From the NCBI RefSeq assembly GCF_041886205.1, contig NZ_CP169029.1: a stretch of DNA of 64,000 bases, one strand, 5' to 3'. Positions 6,400-51,367 of this stretch are shown in pieces (the stretch's first letter is position 1; the number at the start of each line of letters is the position of its first letter). Source of the stretch: Escherichia coli. GTDB lineage: Bacteria > Pseudomonadota > Gammaproteobacteria > Enterobacterales > Enterobacteriaceae. The notes under the pieces are model-generated. The model worked only from the letters and a program-made list of their open reading frames with translations, was not told the origin of the DNA and made no database searches. The translations under genes were made by a program, and so were the position numbers.

Positions 6400-8064
6400 T
6401 TAAAACGTTTCCCAGTTCTCACCGCTATCTGCCACGGCCATTTTACGCGGCGCAGCTGGCATCACGGTTTTTACCACAGCCGATGTTTCACGCTGCTGTT
6501 GCTGCTGTTGCTGAATCCGGAACACTGCCACAGCTTCGGTCAGGCGACTGGCCTGCTCTTCCAGCGCGGCGGCGGCAGCGGCAGACTCTTCCACCAACGC
6601 GGCGTTCTGTTGAGTTACCCGGTCCATCTCAGCAACCGCTAAGCCAACCTGATCGATACCGCGGCTCTGCTCATCAGAAGCAGAAGCAATTTCGCCCATA
6701 ATGTCCGTCACGCGGGTCACGGCGCTGACAATCTCCGCCATTGTTTCCCCGGCGCTTTCGACCAGCGTAGAGCCAACATCCACTTTCCCCACCGAGTCTT
6801 CAATCAGGCTTTTAATTTCACGAGCCGCCTGGGCGCTGCGCTGGGCCAGATTACGCACTTCACCCGCGACCACCGCAAAACCGCGCCCTTGCTCACCCGC
6901 ACGCGCAGCCTCAACCGCCGCGTTCAAAGCCAGAATATTGGTCTGGAAGGCAATGCCGTCAATTACGCTGATAATATCGGCGATTTTCTGCGAACTGGTG
7001 GAAATATCGCGCATAGTCTGCACCACGTTATCTACCACTTTGCCGCCGCGTTGCGCCGTTTCAGAAGCACTTAACGCCAGGTGGCTGGCCTGGCGCGCAT
7101 TCTCGGCGTTCTGTTTCACCGTTGCGGTCAGTTGCTCCATGCTGGCTGCCGTCTCTTCCAGCGAAGCGGCCTGTTGCTCGGTGCGCGAAGAGAGATCGTT
7201 ATTGCCGGTGGCGATTTCGCTGGCACCGCTATAGATGGCATTGGCCCCGTTGCGCACATCACCGACGGTACGCATCAGCTCTCCCTGCATATGGCGCAAA
7301 CTCTCTGCCAGTTGCCCCATCTCATTAGAGCCATCCACCTCAATCGGTTTCACCAGATCGCCGCCTGCAATATGACGAATGCTGTCAATCAGGCGATTCA
7401 TTGGCGCTACCAGCGAGGCTTTAATACCGAACCAGACGGCGAAGATGACCGCCAGTACGACGATCATCACGCCCACCAGAATCCACATCGCCTGGCTGTA
7501 GGAGGCATTGTTATCGCTGACGGCGATATCATAGAGCCGATCGTTTTGCTCCATGTAAGCCACATACTGCTTCTCGAAACCGTCCTGATATCCCTGGGTC
7601 GGCTGATCAAAGAACTCGTTGATTTTGCCTGCACCTAACAGTTGGATCAGCTCCGCCAGCGCATTGTGATAAATATCGTAATTACGTTTGATCTCTGCCG
7701 CTGCGGCGGTGCTCTGACGCGGGTCACGCGGCAACGCTTCGTAATCCGCCCAGTTTTTTTCCGCCTGTTTCAGCGAAATACTGGCACTCTGCATCAGCTC
7801 AGCAACGGTTGAACCGCTACCAATATTATTCTGATCCATCATGTAGCGGATACCCGCGCGGTTGAGGGTGTTACGCGTCTGCAACAACGCGACCCAGCTG
7901 CCATTCAGCGTGGATTGCTGCTGGCGAATGGTTTGTAAAACAGTGAAATTTTCTTTGTCATTCTTTAAGGCATTAAAGAACAGACCGCCTGATGTCAGTT
8001 GTAAAAGGCCAAAAACGGCCAAAACCAGCAGTAAGCTGGTCACGATCTTGATACGTTTTAACAT
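6400..8064 (-). CDS. tsr: Methyl-accepting chemotaxis protein I (serine chemoreceptor)
   Basis: 554 aa; two TM segments, HAMP, highly conserved MCP signalling core ([37 protein letters not shown]), C-terminal NWETF pentapeptide; contains a 7-Gln tract near the C-terminus. Confidence 0.92.
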
Positions 8065-8292: not shown

Positions 8293-8835
8293 ATGTTAAA
8301 CCGTGACTTCGATCATCTCTCAACGCTATTACATCTCTTTTTTGAACGTGAGGATATTTGCCAAAAGCTTAATATTATTGACCAAAACAATATCACCGGT
8401 TGGGAAGTGTGGTTCCAGGTAGAATTTGCTAATATGCTCTGCTCAACAGACCATGAATGGTGGCGTGAACAGGCACTTTCCTGTGATATGCGCAAAAAAC
8501 CTGAACGCCCGACACTACGCACAGATTTCTTACTACGTAAAAAAGGCTGGGCGCAAGATAGCTATATCGCGCTTGAAATAAAACAAAACAGTGACGCGAC
8601 CAGTTGTGTTAAAAATATGATCGCAGACTTAGAAAAAAGCGCCAAAATCAAACGTTCAGAACTCGAGTTACGCAGTTTCTGGACCCTGGGTATCACCCCT
8701 GTGATAGACAGAGAAAGGCTGGATTCTCTCATCGATTGCTATTTAGATGAGAAATTTTATCTTACTAAATCTCGTAAAAAACACGTTTTACTTAAAGAAA
8801 TAAATAATACACCATATTCCTATATTGTTATTTAA
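8293..8835 (+). CDS. Hypothetical 180-aa protein with PD-(D/E)XK-like motif, AT-rich
   Basis: 543-nt ORF in strongly AT-rich DNA where long ORFs are unlikely by chance; AAGGA upstream of ATG; motif D(TDFLL)...E-I-K (YIALEIKQ) spaced like a PD-(D/E)XK nuclease core; I do not recall a gene between tsr and btsT in K-12. Confidence 0.5.
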   Translation: MLNRDFDHLSTLLHLFFEREDICQKLNIIDQNNITGWEVWFQVEFANMLCSTDHEWWREQALSCDMRKKPERPTLRTDFLLRKKGWAQDSYIALEIKQNSDATSCVKNMIADLEKSAKIKRSELELRSFWTLGITPVIDRERLDSLIDCYLDEKFYLTKSRKKHVLLKEINNTPYSYIVI

Positions 8836-51282: not shown

Positions 51283-51367
51283 GGTGCCGAAGGCCGGACT
51301 CGAACCGGCACGTATTTCTACGGTTGATTTTGAATCAACTGCGTCTACCGATTTCGCCACTTCGGCA
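51283..51367 (-). tRNA. leuX: tRNA-Leu (anticodon CAA)
   Basis: 85-nt minus-strand sequence GCCGAAGTGGCGAAATCGGTAGACGCAGTTGATTCAAAATCAACCGTAGAAATACGTGCCGGTTCGAGTCCGGCCTTCGGCACCA; anticodon loop TTCAAAA; next to ahr as in K-12. Confidence 0.92.

Follow-up and report, generated by a model that had tools for sequence, protein, structure and literature searches.

The tsr gene of the window, the stretch of 64,000 nucleotides of Escherichia coli DNA (contig NZ_CP169029.1) analysed here, encodes a run of seven glutamines in the C-terminal tether of the serine chemoreceptor. The question raised by this locus is whether the run is an expansion, produced by slipped-strand addition of 9 bp to a K-12-like gene and lengthening the tether for CheR and CheB, or one of several natural lengths of a variable tract. 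The first view was the original prediction, which was made from the letters of the window and a length of 551 aa for K-12 Tsr.

The reading frame that carries the run is Tsr by each available sequence criterion. Pfam matches, all above the curated cut-offs, were obtained for TarH (PF02203, residues 1-176), HAMP (PF00672, residues 217-263) and MCPsignal (PF00015, residues 327-484), giving the order of periplasmic four-helix-bundle ligand domain, HAMP and MCP signalling domain, and the translation ended in SGENWETF with the pentapeptide NWETF on its linker. Over the full length, 547 of 554 residues (99%) were identical to K-12 Tsr (b4355), and the matching gene is named tsr in thousands of RefSeq genomes. 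Domains, methylation helices, NWETF and neighbours were common to the window and K-12, tsr being flanked, as in MG1655, by lgoT on its downstream and btsT on its upstream side. Relative to K-12, the substitutions E92Q, H178Y, one T-to-M and one E-to-G in the tail were found. Positions of the tether elements and of other features of the window are compiled in Table 1; the tether boundaries were set by counting from I517 (PMC10561060) and by taking residue 517 as the last of the conserved region (PMC4692393).

Table 1. Positions of the tsr tether elements and of other features in the window.
Feature	Position	Strand	Remarks
tsr CDS (serine chemoreceptor)	6400..8064	(-)	554 aa + stop; ORF, K-12 match, Pfam, RefSeq naming
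C-terminal linker (tether), I517-E549	6418..6516	(-)	33 aa vs 30 aa in K-12
Seven-glutamine run Q518-Q524, CAGCAACAGCAGCAACAGCAG	6493..6513	(-)	2.33 perfect copies of the 9-bp unit CAGCAACAG; variable-number repeat
Repeat unit copy 1, CAG CAA CAG, Q518-Q520	6505..6513	(-)	sequence reading
Repeat unit copy 2, CAG CAA CAG, Q521-Q523	6496..6504	(-)	one such unit missing in K-12
NWETF pentapeptide	6403..6417	(-)	window translation; role per PMC7390727, PMC4692393
Six-alanine run of Tsr, SAAAAAAL	6565..6582	(-)	GCC/GCT/GCG codons; Tandem Repeats Finder period 6, 3.2 copies
180-aa ORF	8293..8835	(+)	between tsr and btsT; absent from K-12
755-aa ORF	26501..28768	(+)	pentapeptide-repeat-like segments and two coding tandem arrays
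First array of the 755-aa ORF	27997..28162		period 9, about 18 copies; proline-rich IPxTPQ-like stretch
Second array of the 755-aa ORF	28486..28675		period 24, 7.9 copies; EKQANNST repeats
Rfam matches above gathering score	15265-15341, 51285-51366, 57381-57575, 58409-58484	(-)	SymR antitoxin RNA, tRNA, Ysr276, naRNA4
98-bp tandem repeat, 2.1 copies	58340..58539		overlaps the naRNA4 match

The surroundings of tsr differed among strains. The gap between tsr and btsT measured 377 bp in K-12 and 1,048 bp in the window, where it holds the 180-aa reading frame, which is annotated as 'hypothetical protein' in strains 6EVA and 120. No Pfam match was found for this frame, and its PADLOC matches were weak only (E = 0.0014 and 0.009); by eye, a D...E-x-K pattern (TDFLL...ALEIKQ) appears to resemble that of PD-(D/E)xK nucleases. 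Upstream of tsr, btsT followed directly in K-12, the 180-aa frame in the window, 6EVA and 120, hpaR with the hpa cluster in many strains, and a MurR/RpiR regulator in E272. The downstream neighbour was lgoT in most strains and a TRAP transporter permease in strains of the ST95/LF82 type. Farther along the window, the two arrays of the 755-aa reading frame are much larger than the tsr tract, and this repeat locus is probably far more variable. Rfam gave no match in or near tsr.

On the minus strand, positions 6484-6522 read TTC CGG ATT (F515, R516, I517), then CAG CAA CAG CAG CAA CAG CAG (Q518-Q524), then CGT GAA ACA (R525, E526, T527), so that the seven-glutamine tract of CAG and CAA codons in a 554-aa Tsr was confirmed. 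The 21-nt tract consists of (CAGCAACAG)x2 plus CAG, and its two units are identical, synonymous positions included; at 6492-6513, Tandem Repeats Finder reported 2.4 copies of period 9 with 100% match. Among all long reading frames of the window, only one other homopolymer run reaches 5 aa, and from composition about 1e-5 runs of seven glutamines are expected there. The nearby six-alanine run was constant in length in all 80 orthologues and every E. coli allele examined, unlike the glutamine run.

The run had been described as lying just before NWETF. It was found instead at the proximal start of the tether, directly after I517, the last residue of the conserved helix, with 25 residues between the run and the pentapeptide. 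In an alignment of 82 sequences F515 was invariant and R516 and I517 nearly invariant, and conservation stopped after I517. The glutamine segment thus follows the conserved helical bundle and precedes the pentapeptide. Counted from I517, the K-12 Tsr tether has 30 aa, and that of Tar 34 aa (PMC10561060).

In MG1655 (NC_000913, b4355) Tsr has 551 aa and reads FRIQQQQRE, with the four glutamines written CAGCAACAGCAG, as the original prediction had stated. Pairwise alignment gave one clean 9-bp gap within the tract as the sole length difference between the two genes; an identical tract and length in K-12, named beforehand as the result that would speak against the idea, was not seen. Window Tsr therefore has three more glutamines at the start of the linker (7Q vs 4Q). 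Both forms occur among deposited structures. The sequence of PDB 3ZX6, a fusion of Af1503 HAMP and Tsr, has a 7Q tail ending in SGENWETF and represents the 7Q allele, with two residues differing from the window tail (T/M and T/A); PDB 6S1K is the K-12 4Q form, and 1QU7 ends at FRIQQQ.

Tract length was surveyed across complete E. coli genomes, as had been proposed, and was found to vary (4Q, 7Q, 10Q, 13Q). A 101-nt query spanning the 7Q tract matched 5,382 of 5,426 genomes. At 95% identity or higher there were 4,059 of the 5,382 genomes, and each sampled row of this class had the 101-nt span of 7Q; below 95% there were 1,323, nearly all sampled rows having the 92-nt span of 4Q. A 6Q query gave a consistent split (3,846, 1,320 and 63 genomes for 7Q, 4Q and 10Q or longer). 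Synthetic queries of 1Q, 6Q, 10Q, 13Q and 16Q were run against the same genomes; allele shares were taken from the identity bands of the 7Q and 6Q queries and from spans in the listed rows only. Allowing for allele classes that share identity bands, about 75% of some 5,380 complete genomes were estimated to carry 7Q, about 23% 4Q and about 1% 10Q or longer, in a collection that is redundant (many K-12 derivatives and outbreak clones), so that these shares are not population frequencies. Since megablast breaks large indels into two perfect pieces, the counts of rare alleles are bounds: among the matches listed, at least 56 genomes had the 110-nt span of 10Q, and at least two, a lower bound for the total, had the 119-nt span of 13Q. 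Tract lengths that departed from multiples of 9 bp were not seen in the rows examined, by a method that would not strictly exclude rare alleles below 4Q or of 5Q or 6Q.

The 7Q allele was found in all major lineages sampled (O157:H7, ST131, Nissle 1917, ATCC 8739, SMS-3-5), and 4Q not only in K-12 and its derivatives but also in numerous wild isolates, whose sources were chicken, pig, human and environmental. Longer alleles were read directly in HS and LF82 (both with a tsr of 1,674 bp, 557 aa, 10Q) and in RM14723 (1,683 bp, 560 aa, 13Q); each tract is a perfect (CAGCAACAG)n CAG, and the three genes are annotated as intact tsr. The 10Q length was reproduced in four independent assemblies of HS and two of LF82, which indicates that such lengths are real and stable on laboratory time-scales.

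Several individual alleles deviated in other ways. In E. coli SWHEFF_68 a CAG to CAT change in the second unit interrupts the tract (QQQQQHQ), which should therefore be less able to slip. WP8-S17-ESBL-12 and AHB6 carry 7Q alleles (WP_000919580.1) with R516L (CGG to CTG) directly before the tether, at a residue whose conservation across the 82 aligned sequences is 90% or more and which is termed the 'tethering site' (PMC10561060). The tsr of ST95-32 (1,664 bp) is annotated as a frameshifted pseudogene; the loss of 1 nt lies outside the glutamine tract, which is an intact 7Q.

For the history of the tract, 27 tsr alleles were aligned: 24 from E. coli, one further, divergent allele of this species (E272), and two outgroups from cryptic clades. 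GPEC389 (4Q), S3 (7Q) and HS (10Q) were 1, 1 and 2 nt apart over the 1,644 nt outside the tract, with S3 as the central haplotype, so that the tract changed repeatedly on one flanking background. The 4Q allele was also present on the unrelated ST95-type haplotype, where UTI89 and BEN2908 were nested among the 7Q alleles ST95-32, AHB6 and WP8-S17; LF82 (10Q) and RM14723 (13Q) fell into the same broad clade. Ordered parsimony on a neighbour-joining tree required at least eight copy-number steps for the 24 alleles of E. coli, a count that is approximate because the gene tree is visibly mosaic from recombination. Repeated independent copy-number changes at the tsr tract are hard to avoid.

With its 9-bp unit, the glutamine tract of tsr is a coding variable-number tandem repeat. 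Head-to-tail copies were detected at 6492-6513, strains differ by whole units (12 nt in K-12, 21 in the window, 30 in HS and LF82, 39 in RM14723), and the copy number has changed recurrently on closely related haplotypes. The known alleles have 1.33, 2.33, 3.33 and 4.33 copies, corresponding to 4Q, 7Q, 10Q and 13Q and to proteins of 551, 554, 557 and 560 aa. An imperfect QQxQQ(R/K)x motif, as found in other enterobacteria, would have become a perfect repeat in E. coli proper, and the perfect repeat gains and loses whole units, most simply by replication slippage, to give these four lengths.

Coding variable-number tandem repeats in bacterial genes serve MLVA strain typing, and phase-variable contingency loci are driven by simple-sequence repeats. 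With loci of the MLVA kind the tsr tract shares a perfect short unit, whole-unit differences among strains and recurrent change on close backgrounds, but its copy number is very low (1.33-4.33) and it is stable across laboratory resequencing. Slippage of repeats as the mechanism is also common to contingency loci; classification of tsr among them was rejected, because the 9-bp unit keeps the frame, all alleles encode intact proteins and there is no ON/OFF switch. A literature search for published tsr repeat polymorphism, or for tsr as a typing locus, returned nothing relevant; 'tsr' in a Salmonella MLVA paper is the name of a reagent and not of a locus. The polymorphism is apparently undescribed in the literature, though all alleles sit in public databases.

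The direction of change was approached with outgroups. Species-representative genomes were searched with Tsr residues 1-260, yielding 80 orthologues. This set was without representatives of E. coli, E. albertii, E. fergusonii and S. enterica subsp. enterica, and the nearest outgroups were therefore the two cryptic-clade Escherichia genomes and the divergent allele E272. Tsr had 554 aa in 47 of the 80 species, 553 aa in 14 and 555 aa in 11, and the length of 554 aa was shared with cryptic Escherichia clades, Citrobacter, Salmonella, Enterobacter and others. The linker, measured from F-R to the pentapeptide, had 33 aa in 47 species and 33 +/- 1 aa in 72, over a range of 30-36 with one outlier at 48; K-12, with 30 aa, stands at the lower extreme of the family.

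At the seven glutamine positions of the window the outgroups had QQxQQ(R/K)x. Extended by the two following residues, where the window reads QQQQQQQRE, the segment was QQTQQRQHE and QQAQQRQHE in cryptic Escherichia, QQEQQRSRE and QQEQQRARE in Citrobacter and Salmonella (all in proteins of 553-554 aa), and QQEQQKARE in Enterobacter. The basal E272 allele (554 aa) reads QQEQQRQRE, encoded up to the last glutamine by CAG CAA GAG CAG CAA CGC CAG, an imperfect version of both units. On these comparisons the architecture of 554 aa with a 33-aa linker is ancestral, and the window allele has the ancestral length.

The alternative, in line with the original prediction, is that 7Q is derived, by duplication of 9 bp, from a K-12-like 4Q ancestor. 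The identity of the two units even at synonymous positions fits such a duplication, and the 10Q and 13Q alleles demonstrate that expansions occur at the locus. Within the tract, moreover, a path from an E272-like sequence to 4Q and on by duplication to 7Q costs no more events than substitution in place, and this route would also explain the identical units; the deep history is accordingly the less settled part of the account. For the extant alleles the evidence points the other way. 7Q predominates in the genomes and occurs in every major lineage sampled, the outgroups and the basal E272 share its length, and on the gene tree a 7Q ancestor of E. coli costs 8 steps against 9-10 for a 4Q ancestor. 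S3, with 7Q, lies centrally between GPEC389 and HS. The tract itself is asymmetric in the same sense: 7Q has a pair of overlapping 12-nt direct repeats able to misalign, whereas at that spacing 4Q, with only 1.33 copies, offers a repeat of 3 nt, so that loss of a unit should be easy and its regain by microhomology hard. A 4Q ancestor is thus unlikely, and the 4Q tract of K-12 is probably a contraction of 7Q, the better-supported reading for the extant alleles.

The predicted slipped-strand expansion therefore stands as to the one-unit difference from K-12 and the kind of change, since natural whole-unit differences are what slippage leads one to expect, but its direction is probably wrong. Nor is the length peculiar to this genome: 7Q is the majority allele (about 75%), has the length of the outgroups and is favoured as ancestral by parsimony. 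The allele found in the window is the common one and has nothing unusual about it; the difference from K-12 is ordinary allelic variation.

Shortening of the linker was reportedly studied in earlier truncation work by Li and Hazelbauer in 2006. The claim of a longer tether for CheR and CheB holds in that the tract lies in the C-terminal tether and adds three residues relative to K-12, but the resulting 33 aa are the same as in most orthologues. Engineered linker lengths in Tar alter adaptation behaviour, and for Tar linkers of 22, 29, 34 and 46 aa the fitted CheR position parameter x0 changed by +0.128 +/- 0.048 nm per residue (PMC10561060). The element varied there is the same, located between the helical bundle and NWETF; the Tar variants, however, are laboratory constructs altered by 5-12 residues close to the pentapeptide, whereas Tsr varies naturally, in steps of three glutamines, at the helix-proximal end.

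Each repeat unit changes the CheR/CheB tether by three residues. The point along the methylation helices where the tethered enzymes most probably lie may thereby shift by some tenths of a nanometre; extrapolation from the Tar data predicts about 0.4 nm of CheR displacement per Q3 unit. An AlphaFold monomer model, which is weak (mean pLDDT 62), continued the helix through the run to residue 527, while pLDDT dropped from 68 to 48, and gave no structure from residue 528. If the run is helical, an added residue would contribute less reach than in a coil. Natural pentapeptide linkers range from 29 to 39 aa in one species and up to 91 aa elsewhere (bioRxiv 10.1101/2024.03.07.583918), and the four Tsr alleles all fall within the linker range of working receptors. 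Because all alleles are in frame and within that range, the effect of the allele on adaptation is expected to be small.

A more far-reaching possibility is that selection maintains different tether lengths for different kinetics or precision of adaptation to serine and AI-2, according to niche. The perfect 9-bp repeat of E. coli would then act as a heritable and reversible 'length dial' (30, 33, 36 or 39 residues), with which lineages retune the reach of CheR and CheB and the speed and precision of adaptation. Length does appear to matter, given the narrow linker distribution among the orthologues and the behaviour of the engineered Tar linkers, and two alleles stand at intermediate frequency. 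However, no association with niche or host was seen among the strains listed, each class including isolates from humans, animals, the environment and laboratories; the predicted shift per unit is small, the sampling is heavily biased, and a mutable, nearly neutral repeat would give the same pattern equally. Such tuning is at present improbable. A sequencing or assembly artefact in the low-complexity tract was rejected and is effectively refuted by the census: short repeats are open to miscalling, and one ST95 genome has a frameshifted tsr, though with the frameshift elsewhere in the gene, but the same 21-nt tract was recovered from thousands of independently finished genomes, alternative lengths were repeated across assemblies of HS and LF82, and the 3ZX6 construct has the 7Q tail.

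We assign a probability of about 0.8 to the account as a whole, namely a 9-bp coding variable-number repeat of which the window carries the modal 7Q allele of ancestral length and K-12 a contracted 4Q allele, with an expected small effect on adaptation. Nearly all quantitative chemotaxis work has been done with K-12 Tsr. Its tether of 30 aa falls short of the 33 aa found in most enterobacterial orthologues, and within E. coli roughly three quarters of the genomes encode a longer one. Adaptation in natural strains may differ slightly from that in the model strain if the reach of the enzymes depends on tether length, as the engineered Tar variants suggest. The four natural alleles form an existing length series for examining the tethered-enzyme model in Tsr. 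Should the improbable reading of the repeat as a length dial be true, the K-12 receptor behind nearly all quantitative models of chemotaxis would be an atypical short-tether variant.
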